64,000 bases of DNA from a virus (Duplodnaviria; Caudoviricetes): positions 16,586-80,585 of IMG/VR virus record IMGVR_UViG_3300028591_000166; one strand, 5' to 3'. Both the position numbers and the translations under genes were made by a program. Of this stretch, positions 28,258 to 33,193 are shown in pieces. The notes below the pieces were generated by a model. The model worked only from the letters and a program-made list of their open reading frames with translations, was not told where the DNA came from and did no database searches. The first letter of the stretch is position 1, and every line of letters begins with the position of its first letter.

Positions 28258-28692
28258 CTATTTCATTGCTAGATAGTAGCAGAGTGCTTTTCCTTCTTTA
28301 GCATCTTTATCAGTTAAGAATTTTTTAGATATTTTAGCGTATGTGTTAACATCATCAGATACTGCTCCATAGTAATCAGAGTAGATCATATTCATAGTGT
28401 AGTTCCAATCATATTCATTATACTCTTTAAAAGTTATATTCATATTTCTTGCAACAGAGTTAGTTTCATCAATAGTCCAATGTGGTCCTGTAGTACCATC
28501 TTCATTAACCATATATTTAGTCGCTTTTTCTAAAAGCCAATCGCTAAAGTGTTTACCATAAATCTCTTTATATAAATGAATTTCTAGATCTTCATATAAA
28601 TCACTATGTGTTTCTTTTAACATACTTAATGTATCACATATAAAAGATTTAAGTTGTTCGTAACTAGCATGTTCAATTAATGTTTTATGCAT
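28258..28692 (-). CDS. Conserved phage hypothetical protein (last gene of the five-gene cassette)
   Basis: From the ORF track. The W/Y-rich helical motif WNYTMNMIYSDY recalls proteins I have seen in Bacillota phage cassettes. Confidence 0.75.
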   Translation of the reverse strand: MHKTLIEHASYEQLKSFICDTLSMLKETHSDLYEDLEIHLYKEIYGKHFSDWLLEKATKYMVNEDGTTGPHWTIDETNSVARNMNITFKEYNEYDWNYTMNMIYSDYYGAVSDDVNTYAKISKKFLTDKDAKEGKALCYYLAMK

Positions 28693-28700
28693 AGTAGTAC

Positions 28701-29114
28701 CTATCCTAAATATTCCACTGCTACTGAAATATTAGTTGTATTTATAGCAACACCACTATTAATTACAGAAAGAATTGATGCACACTCAAATGGCATTGTT
28801 CTTATGATTCCTGTAATTGTTAAAGTATGTACTTCTGTATCAGCAGTAGTTACAGTACAAGATGCTGTAAGTCCAGGAATATTTGTACTAGCTTTCTGTA
28901 CATTTATAATAACATCACCTGCAGCAGGTGCAGTAAATGTAACATTAACAGAAACAGCATAGTATCCTGGAGCACCTAAAACTATACTATCAGAATTGTT
29001 TTTAAGTATTCTTCCTGTTCTTCTAGCTATTGTAGATAATGGTAATATACTATCTGCAGGTACGCTAGATGTAGCAGGTGTAATCATATAAATTAAGTTA
29101 TCAACTAAAGCCAT
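28701..29114 (-). CDS. Beta-sandwich protein, BclA-C/C1q-like
   Basis: Alternating beta-strand pattern (PGYYAVSVNVTF, VIINVQK, LSVIN). GGAGG RBS. Confidence 0.6.
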   Translation of the reverse strand: MALVDNLIYMITPATSSVPADSILPLSTIARRTGRILKNNSDSIVLGAPGYYAVSVNVTFTAPAAGDVIINVQKASTNIPGLTASCTVTTADTEVHTLTITGIIRTMPFECASILSVINSGVAINTTNISVAVEYLG

Positions 29115-29142
29115 ATTTATATACCTCCTTATTAAATTTTAA

Positions 29143-29173
29143 AAAGATGGATCATATTGAATGGTCCATCTTT
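29143..29173 (-). terminator. Hairpin, possible terminator or attenuator
   Basis: AAAGATGGA / TCCATCTTT stem followed by a T-run on the minus strand. Confidence 0.55.
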
Positions 29174-29197
29174 GGCAAATGTGCCGTGTCAATATGA

Positions 29198-29821
29198 CTA
29201 AATGTTAGGTGTAAATGGTGGAACAGGTCCATAGAATGGATTGTATCCAGCACTGAATGTTGTAGCACTAGGATATCTAACGATACCACTAGTTGCTTGT
29301 GCTAATTCTAATGAATTAACTTTAGCTTGTAATGCTTCAATCTTGTTAGCTGCTAGAGCATCTAATACTTTTTGGATTTGAACTGTTGTATTATAGTTCA
29401 CGCCATCAATAGCTCTAAGTGTAGAACAACAACATTCATTTTCTTTAGCAAGTAAATTTGCTTGACCTACTGCTAAACCTGCAACATCTCTTTGAAGTTC
29501 TGAATATTTGTCATTAAACGCTGCAACTGTATCATGATATACTTGATTAGTAGTTGCAACACTCTGAGCTGTACCAGAAGTTATAGCACCAATAATGTCT
29601 CTGTTTTGGTTTTGTAAATCATTGAAATTGAAACCATTGTTTACATCTTCAGCAGTCGCAGGTCTATAACCTAAACCATCATAGCCACGTCCTCCAAAGA
29701 AACCATTACCTCCCCACATTAAAGCAAGGATAGCAAATAACCAAAGGCCTCCACCATTCATACCGAAACCATCACCATAACCTCCGCCAACAGGCATTAC
29801 AGGAGTAATTCCGTTTTCCAT
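29198..29821 (-). CDS. Gly-rich single-TM protein with a CCC motif and coiled coil (conserved phage cassette protein)
   Basis: GGG-rich N-terminus, TM segment LWLFAILALMW, NECCC motif and C-terminal heptads. Confidence 0.8.
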   Translation of the reverse strand: MENGITPVMPVGGGYGDGFGMNGGGLWLFAILALMWGGNGFFGGRGYDGLGYRPATAEDVNNGFNFNDLQNQNRDIIGAITSGTAQSVATTNQVYHDTVAAFNDKYSELQRDVAGLAVGQANLLAKENECCCSTLRAIDGVNYNTTVQIQKVLDALAANKIEALQAKVNSLELAQATSGIVRYPSATTFSAGYNPFYGPVPPFTPNI

Positions 29822-29838
29822 AGTTTACTTTCTCCTTA

Positions 29839-30099
29839 TTAATATTTTCCTTGAATACTATTTAAGAAAGCGTTTGGATTTATACCACGTTGTTTACACA
29901 TCGATTCAAATAAACTTTTAGGATCTGCACCATTTTTAAGCGCAGATATAATAGGTTTTAAATTAGGATTACGACTTGCAAGATTTTCAAACATTTGCAT
30001 AGGATTTTTACTATTCATTATTGTTTGATACATACTCCTAATCTCTGACATATTATAGTTTTGCATAGGATTAACTGTAGTATTAAATGGATTAGCCAT
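29839..30099 (-). CDS. Hypothetical protein, N/P/Q/M-rich (86 aa)
   Basis: From the ORF track. Translationally coupled to the upstream gene (AGGGGAA RBS). Confidence 0.75.
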   Translation of the reverse strand: MANPFNTTVNPMQNYNMSEIRSMYQTIMNSKNPMQMFENLASRNPNLKPIISALKNGADPKSLFESMCKQRGINPNAFLNSIQGKY

Positions 30100-30101
30100 A
30101 A

Positions 30102-30488
30102 TTATTCCCCTTTGCTTTCACCTTTTAATAACTTTGTTAATTCTGCTAACTTATTGTTTATATTATCAATGTCGCTTTTTAAAGCGTATTCAGGAATCAT
30201 AGTATTATTTTTTAGAGAAAGTATTTCTTTTGTTTTTGCTTCATCAATTTCTTCAAGTTTAAAATATCTTATAGACGCTTTACCAACTTCATCAGTTTGT
30301 TTCATGTAACATATTGGATTATCACTATCCATTAGAAGCATTGTTTGATTAGGATAAAGCACTTGATACGACTTAGCACCTTCTATACCATTAACAAAAG
30401 TGTATTGATTAATTGGTGCTTTATTATATGCAGGTTGATATCCTGGCATATAAGGATTCTGATAATTATTATAGTTGTAGTTAGGCAT
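30102..30488 (-). CDS. Hypothetical protein with an N/Y/Q-rich N-terminus (128 aa)
   Basis: From the ORF track. AAGGAG RBS. Confidence 0.8.
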   Translation of the reverse strand: MPNYNYNNYQNPYMPGYQPAYNKAPINQYTFVNGIEGAKSYQVLYPNQTMLLMDSDNPICYMKQTDEVGKASIRYFKLEEIDEAKTKEILSLKNNTMIPEYALKSDIDNINNKLAELTKLLKGESKGE

Positions 30489-30557
30489 ACAATTCTCCTT
30501 TAATGTTAATTACATTTTGATTGTATAAAATAACTACTATAAAATACTATAATATAT

Positions 30558-30584
30558 AAAAAGAGTCTATAATTATAGACTCTT
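30558..30584 (-). terminator. Perfect 24-bp palindrome plus T-run; terminator and/or operator
   Basis: AAGAGTCTATAA-TTATAGACTCTT at 30561-30584. Confidence 0.7.
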
Positions 30585-30593
30585 ATAGAATGC

Positions 30594-31178
30594 TTATAAA
30601 CTTTTGTAAGTATCTTTTACTTTCTTTACGTACTTATATATTAAAGGTTCACTTATATTTTTAGACATTGCGTATGCATACGCAGTTATTGTTCTATCTT
30701 TATGTAGATAACCATAAACAATATCTAGTATTTCTTTGTTTATGTTAGGCATAAGATCATACATCTCATTTAAAGTTAAGTTGTGTATAGACTTCTGTTT
30801 TAATAATTTCACAGTATTAATATATTCTTTATTATCTAAATAGTCTTTAACATAATAAGATATTAATGTGATCATAAATGCTGTTAGTACACTGAATAAG
30901 ATAGATGTATTTAATCTTAATTCAATTAGAATAATAAATATAAATGCTATTATTGATATAAGTGCACAAAGTATTAATGATTTTGCATGATATTGTTTAA
31001 CATATAAATTACGAAATATAAAGAATAGTATTATTGTTATACTTGTTTCTATCAACTTTTGATTTGTATAAGCAATACATAGTACTGCTATTAGAGTTAA
31101 TAGTCCAAGTAAAGTATATAACATAAATTTAAACTTTATTTTAAACTTATACAACAATTTATTTAGATTCTTTTTCAA
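30594..31178 (-). CDS. AgrB-like membrane peptidase fused to a C-terminal HTH-like domain
   Basis: Four hydrophobic segments. FRNLYVKQYHAKSLILC places H64 and C71 seven residues apart, like AgrB H77/C84. The C-terminus AYAYAMSKNISEPLIYKYVKKVK is HTH-like. The start codon is uncertain (TTG at 31178 or a downstream ATG). Confidence 0.7.
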   Translation of the reverse strand: MKKNLNKLLYKFKIKFKFMLYTLLGLLTLIAVLCIAYTNQKLIETSITIILFFIFRNLYVKQYHAKSLILCALISIIAFIFIILIELRLNTSILFSVLTAFMITLISYYVKDYLDNKEYINTVKLLKQKSIHNLTLNEMYDLMPNINKEILDIVYGYLHKDRTITAYAYAMSKNISEPLIYKYVKKVKDTYKSL

Positions 31179-31302
31179 GTTTTTCTAGCATTTCCTTATA
31201 GTATTTTTCTACTGTGTCTTTAGATACTTTATGAAGTTTAGCAATTTCTTCAACTAATACTTCATCTTTTTCTCCAAAGAAGAAAACCCACCATGCTCCC
31301 AT
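31159..31302 (-). CDS. Unannotated 47-aa peptide, AgrD-like precursor candidate (MGAWWVFFFGEKDEVLVEEIAKLHKVSKDTVEKYYKEMLEKLEKESK)
   Basis: AAGGAG RBS 8 nt upstream of ATG 31302; TAA at 31159-31161; lies immediately upstream of the AgrB-like gene. Confidence 0.8.
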   Translation of the reverse strand: MGAWWVFFFGEKDEVLVEEIAKLHKVSKDTVEKYYKEMLEKLEKESK

Positions 31303-31865
31303 TGTTTATTCTCCTTTTTTAATATTATATAGTTGGAATAAAGATAATATAGCATTGTCATAATCATACTATCTATTTGTAATAATATAGATACTAATGT
31401 ATATTCTTGATTCAAATACCAATGACCAATATCTTTTACTACAATAGATATTAATTGGAATACTAATATTACAACTACTCCTATTAAAACTCTGTACCAT
31501 TTCTTTTTAAGCCATATAATAGGAAGAAGATATAGAATTACACCAATAATTATATTTATTAATTGGTTATACCAACTCACTAAACTCATAGCAATTATAA
31601 GGGGAATAAAAATCATTGCTTGAGTTCTGGTGTAAAATCTTTGTCCTAGTATAGCTAAGAAAGATAGAGAGTTTAAGATTAAACTCATTATACATGCAAG
31701 TGTATATTTTAACCAGAGATGTTCGTCTATATAAGAACAAACATTTATGAATGTATTGTTGTCAGAGGTTGGATAGAAGTTAGCTCCAAATAGTTTTGCT
31801 ATTAAAGCTAATATTAAAACAATCCAACAAGTTATGATAACAACTAATAGTGTATGTTTCTTCAT
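31254..31865 (-). CDS. Multi-pass membrane protein (about 6 TM, 203 aa)
   Basis: From the ORF track. Strongly hydrophobic; its start overlaps the upstream stop (ATGA) and its 3' end overlaps the peptide ORF. Confidence 0.8.
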   Translation of the reverse strand: MKKHTLLVVIITCWIVLILALIAKLFGANFYPTSDNNTFINVCSYIDEHLWLKYTLACIMSLILNSLSFLAILGQRFYTRTQAMIFIPLIIAMSLVSWYNQLINIIIGVILYLLPIIWLKKKWYRVLIGVVVILVFQLISIVVKDIGHWYLNQEYTLVSILLQIDSMIMTMLYYLYSNYIILKKENKQWEHGGFSSLEKKMKY

Positions 31866-32203
31866 AATTGAGCTTCTAATCTATTTATTTCATCACGCCA
31901 AAATTGTCTTTGGGTTTTAATTGATGTGTATTCTTCTTCACTAATTAGACCTTCTGCATACTTAATTGCTTTATAATCAGTATTAGCAAGATTTAGTTTA
32001 AGCTCATCTATATTTATTTTTATAGTATTTAATTTAATAAATTCTTTTTCTTCAGTAATATATTCAGGAGTTTTCGTTTGACTTTCAAATAATAATTCAG
32101 ACCCATCATATTTACATACAATGTCTTCATCAGTGTATTCAAAGCCTTTTCTTTTAGTTTCACTAATTGATACTATTTTATTATTTTCTAATAAATACCA
32201 CAT
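31862..32203 (-). CDS. Tail-fibre assembly chaperone-like protein
   Basis: L.NTDYKAIKY.EG.IS.EEY..IK..RQ.WRDEIN.LE motif; lies directly after the fibre genes. Confidence 0.6.
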   Translation of the reverse strand: MWYLLENNKIVSISETKRKGFEYTDEDIVCKYDGSELLFESQTKTPEYITEEKEFIKLNTIKINIDELKLNLANTDYKAIKYAEGLISEEEYTSIKTQRQFWRDEINRLEAQL

Positions 32204-32212
32204 ATGACCTCC

Positions 32213-33193
32213 TTAAATTGCAGATACAACATCTGTTATAGTAGCAGATGCACTTGTAGTTAAATAATATACTGTAAATGAAGTATCAGTTGTAGAATTT
32301 TTATAAGCATTTACAATAGCTGTTGATGAATTTCTATAAACACATTGACCATCTTCCTTTATTGCAGTAGTAGTTTTTGCTAAAGTTGCAGTTGCTTGTG
32401 TTGTTGCACCTATTGACTCTAGTAATGATAAAACTGCTGAAAGGCTTGTGGCTTTATAATGATTTGTTGAATAAATTTCAAATGATACAGTTCTAGATGT
32501 TGTACCTACTGATGCAGAAGTATTCCATTGACCTGATGTTATTTGAATAGCATGTCTATATACTTTAAGTCCGAGATATGCAGTACCACCTGAATTCATA
32601 ATATCTTCATCTGGTAAAAAGACATAATAATCATCATCTAGCTCAGTACCACTAGCTGCATTAAATCCAAATACTAATGAACTTCCTGCATAATTTTCAA
32701 AGTATATATATGGTTCACTGGCATATGCGAGAATAATTCCATCCTTAAAACTTACTGTATTATTGAAAGTTTTTTGACCTGCAAATGTTTGATTACCTGT
32801 AGTTACTACACCTGCTTGATTGCTTGCTGCATTTGGAACATATAATTTACAAGTATCTGTTACACCTTGAGATGTAGATATTTGTAAACCACTTGAATAA
32901 GAACGAGATGGATAATAGTTAGTATCAGTAAATGTTGGAGTGAATGTTACAGGTAATCCTGTAGTAGTTAATGTTAAAGTATTTCCACTAACTGAAGCTG
33001 ATTTAACATAAGATGTTGTGCTTGGTAATGCCTGAACATCACTTGCTGATAGAGTAATATTGCTTGATAATGCTTTTCCATTTACAGTTCTTGTTGTAGG
33101 GACGTATTCACTATGTGTATGAGACCTAACTGGGAAGATTAGTTCCTCCCAGCTAGTTCCATTGAATACTTTATATTTAGCATTTGTTGCCAT
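32213..33193 (-). CDS. Tail fibre / receptor-binding protein 2 (326 aa)
   Basis: S/T-rich beta sequence with the VPTTRTVNGKALSSNITL fibre repeat and a GVVTTGNQTFAGQKTF fibre motif. Confidence 0.75.
   Translation of the reverse strand: MATNAKYKVFNGTSWEELIFPVRSHTHSEYVPTTRTVNGKALSSNITLSASDVQALPSTTSYVKSASVSGNTLTLTTTGLPVTFTPTFTDTNYYPSRSYSSGLQISTSQGVTDTCKLYVPNAASNQAGVVTTGNQTFAGQKTFNNTVSFKDGIILAYASEPYIYFENYAGSSLVFGFNAASGTELDDDYYVFLPDEDIMNSGGTAYLGLKVYRHAIQITSGQWNTSASVGTTSRTVSFEIYSTNHYKATSLSAVLSLLESIGATTQATATLAKTTTAIKEDGQCVYRNSSTAIVNAYKNSTTDTSFTVYYLTTSASATITDVVSAI
33057..33094. repeat. 38-bp exact direct repeat, copy 1, shared between the two fibre genes
   Basis: ATATTGCTTGATAATGCTTTTCCATTTACAGTTCTTGT; identical to 34202-34239. 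Confidence 0.95.

Follow-up and report, generated by a model that had tools for sequence, protein, structure and literature searches.

A three-gene unit of an uncultured sheep-gut phage encodes an AgrB-like protein fused to a predicted HTH domain and a leaderless small protein: a putative kinase-free relative of the agr system

Why would a phage carry an AgrB-like peptidase gene beside a small gene whose product has neither a leader nor a ring-forming residue, and without a receptor kinase? We examined this question in a 64-kb stretch of the genome of an uncultured sheep-gut phage (hereafter the window; 64,000 nucleotides of an 80.6-kb contig that is estimated to be 82% complete). The initial annotation had described three overlapping genes there, encoding a membrane protein of about six transmembrane (TM) helices, a 47-aa protein with a strong ribosome-binding site and the core GAWWVFFF, and an AgrB-like protein with a His-x6-Cys dyad, and this observation was confirmed in our analysis. 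It had further inferred that AgrB may make a lactam or linear aromatic peptide for phage–phage or phage–host communication, with the membrane protein as exporter or receptor, and this interpretation was only partly supported. The three genes are translationally coupled, and the features of the locus are collected in Table 1.

Table 1. Coordinates of the features of the three-gene unit and of the adjacent downstream region in the 64-kb window.
Feature	Position	Strand	Length	Description
6-TM membrane protein	31254-31865	-	203 aa	First gene of the trio; overlaps the small ORF by 49 nt; its last 16 residues are a window-specific extension
Shine-Dalgarno sequence	31311-31315	-		AGGAG, 8 nt upstream of the ATG of the small ORF
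Small ORF	31159-31302	-	47 aa	Starts MGAWWVFFFGEKDEV; Met1, core Gly2-Phe9, Gly10-Glu11 and a 38-aa charged follower; overlaps the AgrB-like ORF by 20 nt
Core of the small protein	31276-31299	-	8 aa	GAWWVFFF
AgrB-like ORF	30594-31178	-	194 aa	AgrB-like domain and predicted HTH domain; start uncertain (TTG 31178, or ATG at M19)
AgrB-like four-helix membrane peptidase domain	30795-31178	-	residues 1 to ~128	
R56 codon	31011-31013	-		
H64 codon	30987-30989	-		CAT
C71 codon	30966-30968	-		TGT
Predicted cytoplasmic four-helix HTH domain	30597-30794	-	residues ~129-194	
Palindrome and T-run	30561-30584	-	12-bp arms	Perfect palindrome; intrinsic-terminator-like site ending the transcription unit of the trio
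Candidate operator/promoter of the downstream cassette	30520-30551	-		Tandem repeat followed by a -10-like TATACAAT
Tandem direct repeat	30535-30551	-		TATAGTA-TTT-TATAGTA

We first asked whether the third gene is truly related to AgrB. The protein scored 33.8 bits against Pfam AgrB PF04647 (cut-off 23, E 2.7e-8) and 33.1 bits in a six-frame search, and most homologues carried a precomputed PF04647 hit. R56, H64 and C71, together with F52, aligned with the AgrB proteins of the phages phiCDHM1 and Davies, and correspond to the conserved Arg (R70) and the catalytic H77/C84 of the S. aureus enzyme. Lack of conservation of the His/Cys pair had been named beforehand as a condition that would refute the initial reading, but His and Cys were each kept in 149 of 150 relatives, whereas Arg was kept in 134 of 150, with Lys in 7 more. 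However, the match is partial and covers only residues 23–109, which is profile positions 30–117 of 185, and the alignment with canonical AgrB ends after TM4. The GG before the catalytic His, which canonical phage AgrBs carry, is replaced by KQ. The AlphaFold2 (AF2) model gave four TM helices (pLDDT 90.5), so the full-length six-helix body of AgrB is absent, and no AgrB structure was found in the PDB by sequence. The start of this gene remains uncertain, because a 90% identical homologue is called from the ATG at M19, but the conserved basic N-terminal stretch favours an upstream start.

The C-terminal 65 residues are not AgrB but a predicted HTH domain, which the initial annotation did not mention. 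AF2 placed helices at 136–193 with pLDDT above 90, and Foldseek found KorA, ArdK, SigD4 and SigE region 4 at probability up to 0.99, but with E of only about 0.3. The SloR HTH was matched at E 0.011. Stand-alone soluble homologues of this domain exist in other contigs, and one of them scored 25.6 bits against the Pfam Mga-HTH cut-off of 21.1.

We then asked whether the small ORF is a real gene. It sits in the same place in every related locus with enough upstream sequence, down to about 25% AgrB identity, and the whole trio recurs in these loci. The three genes are not always separate: the 6-TM protein is fused in frame to the AgrB-HTH protein, giving one polypeptide of about 400 aa, in 30 of the 150 best representatives, of which 29 are true family members. 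These fused genes still carry an MG-aromatic peptide ORF, out of frame, in their linker, and it is better conserved than the main frame. Among the 21 copies with an MG-type start, MG was found in 20, an 8-aa core in 19, an aromatic residue or Leu followed by a small residue in 21, and an acidic residue next in 19. The follower is not conserved between subfamilies, so the N-terminal core is the constrained part.

The small protein nevertheless fails most of the criteria of AgrD. In agreement with the initial annotation, the core starts at residue 2 and there is no amphipathic leader of about 24 residues, and GAWWVFFF contains no Cys, Ser or Thr, as in 18 of the 21 cores. The core of 7–9 residues followed by an acidic, charged tail is shared with AgrD (here G-E-K-D-E follows the core), but the tail is 38 aa rather than 14–15 and contains no proline, and hence no PxxP or EVPKEL-type motif. 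No AgrD family was found among the Pfam or NCBIfam hits at E up to 10, and hhalign against phiCDHM1 AgrD gave a probability of 0.5%.

The 6-TM protein had 27 homologues of 183–196 aa, and AF2 gave six TM helices at pLDDT 79, but no relative of known function was detected. Searches of Pfam, PHROGs and NCBIfam gave nothing. The Atlas gave only unnamed clusters, with a TM of 0.37 to an AgrC-type kinase cluster, which is too weak to use. A wide PDB fold search gave a best Z of 6.5, which is background for helical bundles, and hhalign against the AgrC-like membrane protein of Davies gave a probability of 0.7%. As the initial annotation had stated, no AgrC or AgrA is present: neither HATPase_c_5 nor LytTR was matched on the 80.6-kb contig. 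No tyrosine integrase (PF00589) was found on the contig either, so there is no sign that the phage is temperate, and communication of the lysis–lysogeny type has no support.

A further finding concerns the DNA after the gene. The tandem repeat is unique in the 64-kb window and positionally conserved, and a repeat of 10–11 bp period occurred in 20 of 24 loci, against 14% of random windows and 21% of shuffles. The half-site covaried with the recognition helix of the HTH: YKY with TATAG, [YF]RY with GATAG, and RTLFRL with GGCAC/GACAC. The YKY/TATAG pairing occurred in two lineages that the tree does not join, although the covariation rests on few independent lineages and the repeat could be a promoter element read by another factor. 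A scan for sigma-70 promoters gave fewer sites than shuffles and was uninformative.

Studies have described several systems with which this unit can be compared. The staphylococcal and clostridial AgrB/AgrD pair (PMC10482373) shares the membrane cysteine peptidase with Arg and His-x6-Cys aligned at the cytoplasmic membrane face, the adjacent small precursor gene, and a core ending in a hydrophobic residue before acidic residues and a charged tail. Here, in contrast, the last part of AgrB is replaced by the predicted HTH domain, the gene order is precursor before enzyme, and an extra 6-TM partner is present. Among phages, Clostridium phage phiCDHM1 carries agrD-agrB-agrC, and the Brevibacillus phages Davies, Emery and Abouo carry AgrB, a putative AgrD and membrane proteins without a kinase domain (PMC3901668). 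These cassettes also combine a phage-encoded AgrB homologue with a small peptide gene and polytopic membrane proteins, and the Davies type likewise lacks a kinase domain. However, their AgrBs are full length without an HTH, their AgrDs have leaders and PxxP tails, their membrane proteins are unrelated to the 6-TM protein, and they sit in temperate phages next to integrase and repressor genes.

The homodetic cyclic autoinducing peptides of Clostridia (Molloy et al. 2021, PMC8251862) are made by an AgrB-dependent route to a head-to-tail cyclic peptide, through a thioester and attack by the N-terminal amine. That route needs an N-terminal Cys, a thiolactone intermediate and prior leader removal, whereas here the amine would have to attack the acyl-enzyme directly. 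Precursors with an N-terminal core plus follower are known for bottromycin (BtmD/BotA; PMC5103208). The bottromycin precursor has Met, a Gly-initiated 8-residue hydrophobic core and an acidic follower of about 35 aa, without a leader. This resemblance is one of architecture by analogy only. There is no sequence relation, and the enzymes (YcaO, radical SAM, aminopeptidase and amidohydrolase) are entirely different. Membrane-bound one-component regulators of the ToxR/CadC/BcrR type also tether a DNA-binding HTH to a membrane sensor domain, and the four-helix fold resembles sigma region 4, KorA and ArdK, but here the HTH is C-terminal to a peptidase-like membrane domain, and no such pairing with AgrB was found in the papers searched. 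Literature searches for AgrB-HTH fusions, leaderless AgrD or AgrB-like phage proteins found no description.

We believe that the three genes most likely encode one membrane-bound unit that is derived from the agr peptide-processing machinery but wired differently, as a kinase-free peptidase/transcription switch, with a probability of roughly 55%. In this view, the 194-aa protein is the catalytic core of an AgrB-type cysteine peptidase, and its most likely substrate is the 47-aa protein, in which removal of Met1 would expose Gly2. By analogy with AgrB/AgrD, cleavage would fall after Phe9, leave the core as a thioester on Cys71 and release the follower. The 6-TM protein would be an obligatory third subunit acting as scaffold, exporter or sensor. 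The HTH would bind the tandem repeat, which lies just after the terminator-like site and before the next operon, and the state of the peptidase/peptide complex would be coupled directly to transcription of the downstream cassette with no AgrC/AgrA relay. The output is therefore probably direct transcriptional control inside the infected cell. What our analysis itself established is the homology, the conservation, the synteny, the fusions, and the repeat with its covariation, whereas peptidase or cyclase activity, cleavage and its position, DNA binding, and the coupling between them are inferred.

This reading is supported by the predicted topology, which puts the linker or small protein, H64/C71 and the HTH all on the cytoplasmic side, and by the motif of the small protein, which mirrors the AgrD site (hydrophobic P1, acidic P1'/P2', and E34 contacting R70 of AgrB; PMC10482373). 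On the other hand, there is no biochemical evidence of cleavage for any member, and a membrane-tethered HTH must reach DNA from the membrane. One cleavage rule does not fit all subfamilies, because the residues after the core are basic in some (related locus L038 and the fused forms), and the core is preceded by an N-terminal extension in others (loci L037 and L039).

The communication proposed in the initial annotation is possible but unlikely on present evidence. In that case the enzyme would turn the precursor into a diffusible hydrophobic octapeptide, head-to-tail cyclic through the Gly2 amine or linear, which the 6-TM protein would export or sense and which would act on other cells as a phage–phage or phage–host signal or a membrane-active agent, while the HTH would mainly grip the follower, like a RiPP recognition element, rather than DNA. 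The near-invariant Gly2 and the core of exactly 8 residues across very divergent subfamilies fit closure by the N-terminal amine, which would need these features where a bare substrate would not, but they do not prove it. The lack of Cys, Ser and Thr in 18 of 21 cores excludes (thio)lactones, homodetic peptides and N-terminal cores with followers have precedents as described above, and the peptide ORF is kept even inside fused genes. However, no result shows that a peptide is released, cyclised, exported or sensed, no receptor kinase or regulator is present, a covarying DNA repeat lies next to the HTH gene, and a lysis–lysogeny signal has no support. The core is also not hypervariable between close relatives, as 6 of 8 residues are identical between the window and the relative L002, no more diverged than the rest of the protein. 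In some subfamilies an N-terminal extension, or an in-frame fusion of the core to the 6-TM protein, removes the free Gly amine unless there is internal initiation (L036, L037 and L039).

A more far-reaching combination is not excluded, although we consider it doubtful. After Met removal, the free amine of Gly2 would attack the Phe9 acyl-enzyme thioester directly and give cyclo(GAWWVFFF) with no thiolactone intermediate, and the HTH of the same protein would read out the state of this reaction at the next promoter. The result would be a complete peptide-signal maker and transcription switch in one phage membrane complex without any kinase.

About as improbable is a membrane-tethered transcription factor complex in which the small protein is a structural or regulatory subunit, the homologue of a linker, and is not cleaved into a product. 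The His/Cys pair would then act on the complex itself, for example by cutting at the conserved SYYVKDYLD segment after TM4 to release the HTH into the cytoplasm, or would have a non-proteolytic role. The single-polypeptide forms, the free-standing HTH homologues (which indicate that the domain works untethered), the strong conservation of Y108, D112, Y113 and D115 after TM4, and a small protein at least as conserved as the enzyme are consistent with this. In contrast, the feature common to all subfamilies is the N-terminal MG-aromatic segment and not the follower, its retention as an overlapping out-of-frame gene in fused forms is hard to explain for a mere linker, and the motif after the core resembles the AgrD scissile site. 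That the small ORF is a chance or untranslated ORF created by the overlap of two real genes can be all but dismissed, because although it is short, overlaps both neighbours and may be missed by gene callers, its amino acids are conserved across more than 20 loci with synonymous and conservative change, its RBS is strong, and it is called as a gene in independent assemblies.

agr-type signalling is understood as a four-part circuit of enzyme, precursor, kinase and regulator. The present family has about 400 sequence clusters at 50% identity and was found only in phage and metagenome contigs. Searches for cultured relatives in 50,697 phage records by blastn and tblastn with the window protein, a distant member or a fused member found nothing, a scan of bacterial genomes that used only the near family found none, and a single fused protein found no viral locus. 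The family shows that the catalytic core of AgrB can be detached from the rest of the protein, joined to a predicted DNA-binding domain, and paired with a putative precursor that has no leader and no ring-forming residue. If the proposed coupling holds, it would be a new way of linking peptide processing to gene control, would add a regulatory layer to gut and rumen phages, and would offer a compact part for synthetic biology, and if the Gly-to-Phe ring closure occurs, it would extend AgrB chemistry to direct macrolactam formation. Either way, the cassette is small and self-contained.

Metatranscriptome contigs covered the stretch at 100% identity and broke at 30540–30590, around the terminator-like site, while the DNA contig runs on. 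This is weak support, because these are contigs from one study that could contain DNA and do not prove transcription. Because the 203-aa and 194-aa ORFs share a frame, we also considered a single frameshifted gene, but three stops separate them and the frame of the small ORF itself is the conserved one, so this was rejected. The tail of the small protein gave matches to GerE (E 0.003) and sigma70-ECF (E 0.0035), which could suggest an HTH fragment, but the followers of other subfamilies have unrelated sequences, and we treat the resemblance as incidental.

Three tightly packed ORFs were found on the minus strand, encoding a hydrophobic membrane protein, a small protein and an AgrB-like protein. 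The first gene overlaps the upstream gene on the tail-fibre side by 4 nt, the three genes overlap one another by 49 and 20 nt, and a perfect hairpin followed by a T-run lies behind the last stop codon. The initial annotation had reported these three overlapping genes, and this observation held. The stretch belongs to an 80.6-kb IMG/VR viral contig, estimated to be 82% complete, which carries a terminase, an adaptor and a primase, tail-fibre-like genes and a giant ORF. Near-identical DNA occurs in sheep-gut metagenomes and in one sheep-gut metatranscriptome study.

Coordinates of the features described in the text (window unless a related locus is named)
Feature	Position	Strand	Description
Membrane protein (6-TM)	31254-31865	-	203 aa, hydrophobic
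C-terminal extension of the 6-TM protein	31254-31301	-	16 residues
Small ORF	31159-31302	-	47 aa, MGAWWVFFFGEKDEVLVEEIAK..., AGGAG 8 nt upstream
AgrB-like protein	30594-31178	-	194 aa
Terminator-like hairpin	30561-30584		12-bp arms, T-run
Tandem repeat	30535-30551		TATAGTA-TTT-TATAGTA
Downstream cassette	28258-30488	-	five proteins
Giant ORF	1139-25312	-	8057 aa
Hidden out-of-frame ORF in fused gene, L040	590-860
Hidden out-of-frame ORF in fused gene, L012	2800-3010
Variant precursor, L037	1335-1484		24-residue N-terminal extension
Variant precursor, L039	1315-1494		aromatic motif, then a TM helix
Variant precursor, L036	2-652		MG-core and follower fused in frame to the 6-TM protein

The 6-TM protein of the window runs past the point where all 26 homologues stop (...KKENK), so that the usual stop-start overlap with the small ORF has become an overlap of 49 nt.

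The Pfam AgrB profile (PF04647) matched the 194-aa protein at 33.8 bits against a gathering cut-off of 23, but the match covers only residues 23-109, which are profile positions 30-117 of 185. The protein was aligned with two canonical phage AgrBs taken from annotated records, phiCDHM1 gp36 and Brevibacillus phage Davies gp46. The only invariant columns were F52, R56, H64 and C71, and similarity ended after the fourth helix. Among 150 family members of at least 150 aa, His64 and Cys71 are each present in 149, and Arg56 is present in 134, with Lys in 7 others. These are the most conserved positions of the family, which argues for retained catalysis. AlphaFold2 (pLDDT 90.5) predicted four TM helices, a juxtamembrane helix and a C-terminal four-helix bundle at residues 136-193. 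Foldseek placed this bundle with the HTH domains of KorA, ArdK and sigma region 4, at probability up to 0.99 but with weak E-values, and a profile search of PDB sequences found the SloR HTH at E 0.011. Free-standing homologues of this domain of 70-128 aa exist, and one of them passes the Pfam Mga-HTH cut-off. The free-standing 70-80-aa proteins P0084, P0088, P0096, P0142, P0166, P0178 and P0181 (our labels for single homologues) are homologous to the HTH domain alone, and they suggest a family of small phage regulators from which the fusion drew its DNA-binding part. From the positive-inside pattern and the predicted structures, we inferred that the N-terminus, the H64 loop, C71 and the HTH lie on the cytoplasmic side. 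The protein is therefore the catalytic half of AgrB fused to a DNA-binding-type domain, which the initial annotation had not noted.

The small ORF is a real gene. Every related locus with enough sequence, among contigs from ENA, Logan, IMG/VR and JGI, has an ORF of 46-60 aa in the same slot, between a 6-TM gene of ~185-200 aa and the AgrB-HTH gene. This pattern extends to subfamilies whose AgrB-HTH proteins are only ~20-30% identical to that of the window. Within the near subfamily, the small protein is 45-74% identical, apart from one outlier locus (L009) at 28%, whereas across subfamilies only the N-terminus is alike. Of 21 copies with an MG-type start, 20 begin with Met-Gly, 19 have exactly eight residues from Gly2 to the last aromatic residue, all 21 end the core in an aromatic residue or Leu, all 21 follow it with a small residue (G/S/A/N/C), 19 then have Asp or Glu, and 18 have no Cys, Ser or Thr in the core. 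The follower is a long charged segment whose sequence is not conserved between subfamilies, and the weak HTH-like profile hits of the window's tail are therefore probably incidental. Exceptions were found among the related loci. L037 and L039 have N-terminal extensions, and L037, with its 24-residue extension and a Cys six residues before the GDD site, is closer to a canonical AgrD. L038 has a basic continuation, L036 is an in-frame fusion, and L034 deviates.

An exhaustive profile search found 401 cluster representatives at E below 1e-3. Of the best 150, 30 are 340 aa or longer, and those inspected are single polypeptides made of the 6-TM domain, a linker, the AgrB-like domain and the HTH, except for one long hit (P0133), which is an unrelated repeat protein. 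This ties the three genes together functionally. In the two fused genes whose DNA could be read, L040 and L012, the linker hides an out-of-frame ORF, MGRWLPFFKSERKW plus a hydrophobic helix and MGAWLVFFKSNKKW plus a hydrophobic helix, respectively. In this ORF an MG-aromatic core is followed by KS..KW and then by the hydrophobic helix, and it is more conserved than the low-complexity, Ser/Asn/Cys-rich linker of the main frame, which looks like overprinted genes. The MG-aromatic peptide gene is thus the universal, constrained element.

A review defines AgrD as an amphipathic leader of ~24 aa, a core of 7-9 aa and a charged tail of 14-15 aa, in which Cys28 forms the ring, and tail residues such as E34, modelled to contact AgrB R70, are needed for processing (PMC10482373). 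The small protein of the window shares the core length, the hydrophobic last residue, an acidic residue two positions after it and the adjacency to the enzyme. However, it lacks the leader, the nucleophile and the PxxP motif seen in phage AgrDs, and it hit no AgrD model. In outline it would work like an AgrD, but we believe that it should not be filed as one.

Between the terminator-like hairpin and the next gene lies a tandem repeat, which is followed about 10 nt later by TATACAAT. The exact repeat is unique in the 64-kb window, and relatives have a repeat at the same place. Two 7-mers with at most one mismatch, at a period of 10-11 bp, occur within 90 nt of the stop codon in 20 of 24 loci, compared with 14% of random windows of the same loci and 21% of shuffles, although many of these loci are related and are not independent. 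The half-site changes with the predicted recognition helix of the HTH.

Recognition helix of the fused HTH and half-site of the downstream repeat, by locus
Recognition helix	Half-site	Loci
SEP/QL-YKY	TATAG	window, L002, L023
SEATL-[YF]RY	GATAG / GAAAG / GAGAG	nine loci (one, L008, reads GVATL)
SERTLFRY	GACAG / GTCAG	L009
SRRTLFRL	GGCAC / GACAC	L040, L012 (fused forms)
other helices	GATAC, TTACTAT, ATAACAA	L036, L034, L011

In a maximum-likelihood tree, L023 is not joined to the pair of the window and L002. The Lys/T pairing may therefore have arisen twice, although the polytomy does not exclude one origin. This is the pattern expected of a regulator and its operator, with DNA binding inferred from sequence alone.

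In this study, we believe that the best-supported reading is a kinase-free, agr-derived membrane switch, in which an AgrB-type peptidase domain would act on the adjacent leaderless small protein at the inner face of the membrane, with the 6-TM protein as third subunit, while the fused HTH would control the downstream cassette. The homology, the conservation and synteny of the genes, the fused forms, and the repeat and its covariation were established from the sequences, whereas cleavage of the small protein, binding of the HTH to DNA and the coupling of these two activities are inferred, and release, cyclisation or export of the octapeptide remains hypothetical. The strict Met-Gly start and the length of eight residues are the best arguments for ring closure by the N-terminal amine, and the subfamilies with N-terminal extensions or in-frame fusion are the best arguments against it as a general rule. 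No AgrC-type kinase, LytTR regulator or tyrosine integrase was found on the contig. Nothing therefore points to a temperate phage, and a lysis-lysogeny signal has no support. The proposal of the initial annotation, an agr-like cassette making a peptide for phage-phage or phage-host communication, was thus only partly supported.

No description of an AgrB-HTH fusion, a leaderless AgrD or this cassette was found in the searchable literature. The nearest published cases are full-length agr cassettes in temperate phages (PMC3901668). Compared with these, the AgrB of the window is reduced to its catalytic half and joined to an HTH, and its putative precursor has an N-terminal core without Cys and a long follower.

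The cassette behind the candidate operator is conserved next to the three genes in relatives and is the likely target of regulation. It comprises a 128-aa N/Y/Q-rich protein with a conserved FVNGIEGAK core (PHROG 21718), an 86-aa protein, a Gly-rich membrane protein (PHROG 16490), a BclA-C-like protein and a DUF7841 protein, all of unknown function. Other annotations of this stretch place an RNA-polymerase-like core and an exonuclease motif inside the giant ORF. If so, the phage may bring its own polymerase, which bears on which enzyme reads the promoter after the AgrB-HTH gene. In the sheep-gut metatranscriptome, contigs at 29800-30539, which cover the downstream cassette, had a higher word depth (80 and 29) than those at 30591-32400, which cover the three genes (10-23 and 4-9.5). 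This evidence is at the level of contigs from one study, and contig depth cannot rank genes, so it is only a hint of a separate strong promoter. The contigs break at the region of the terminator and the repeat.
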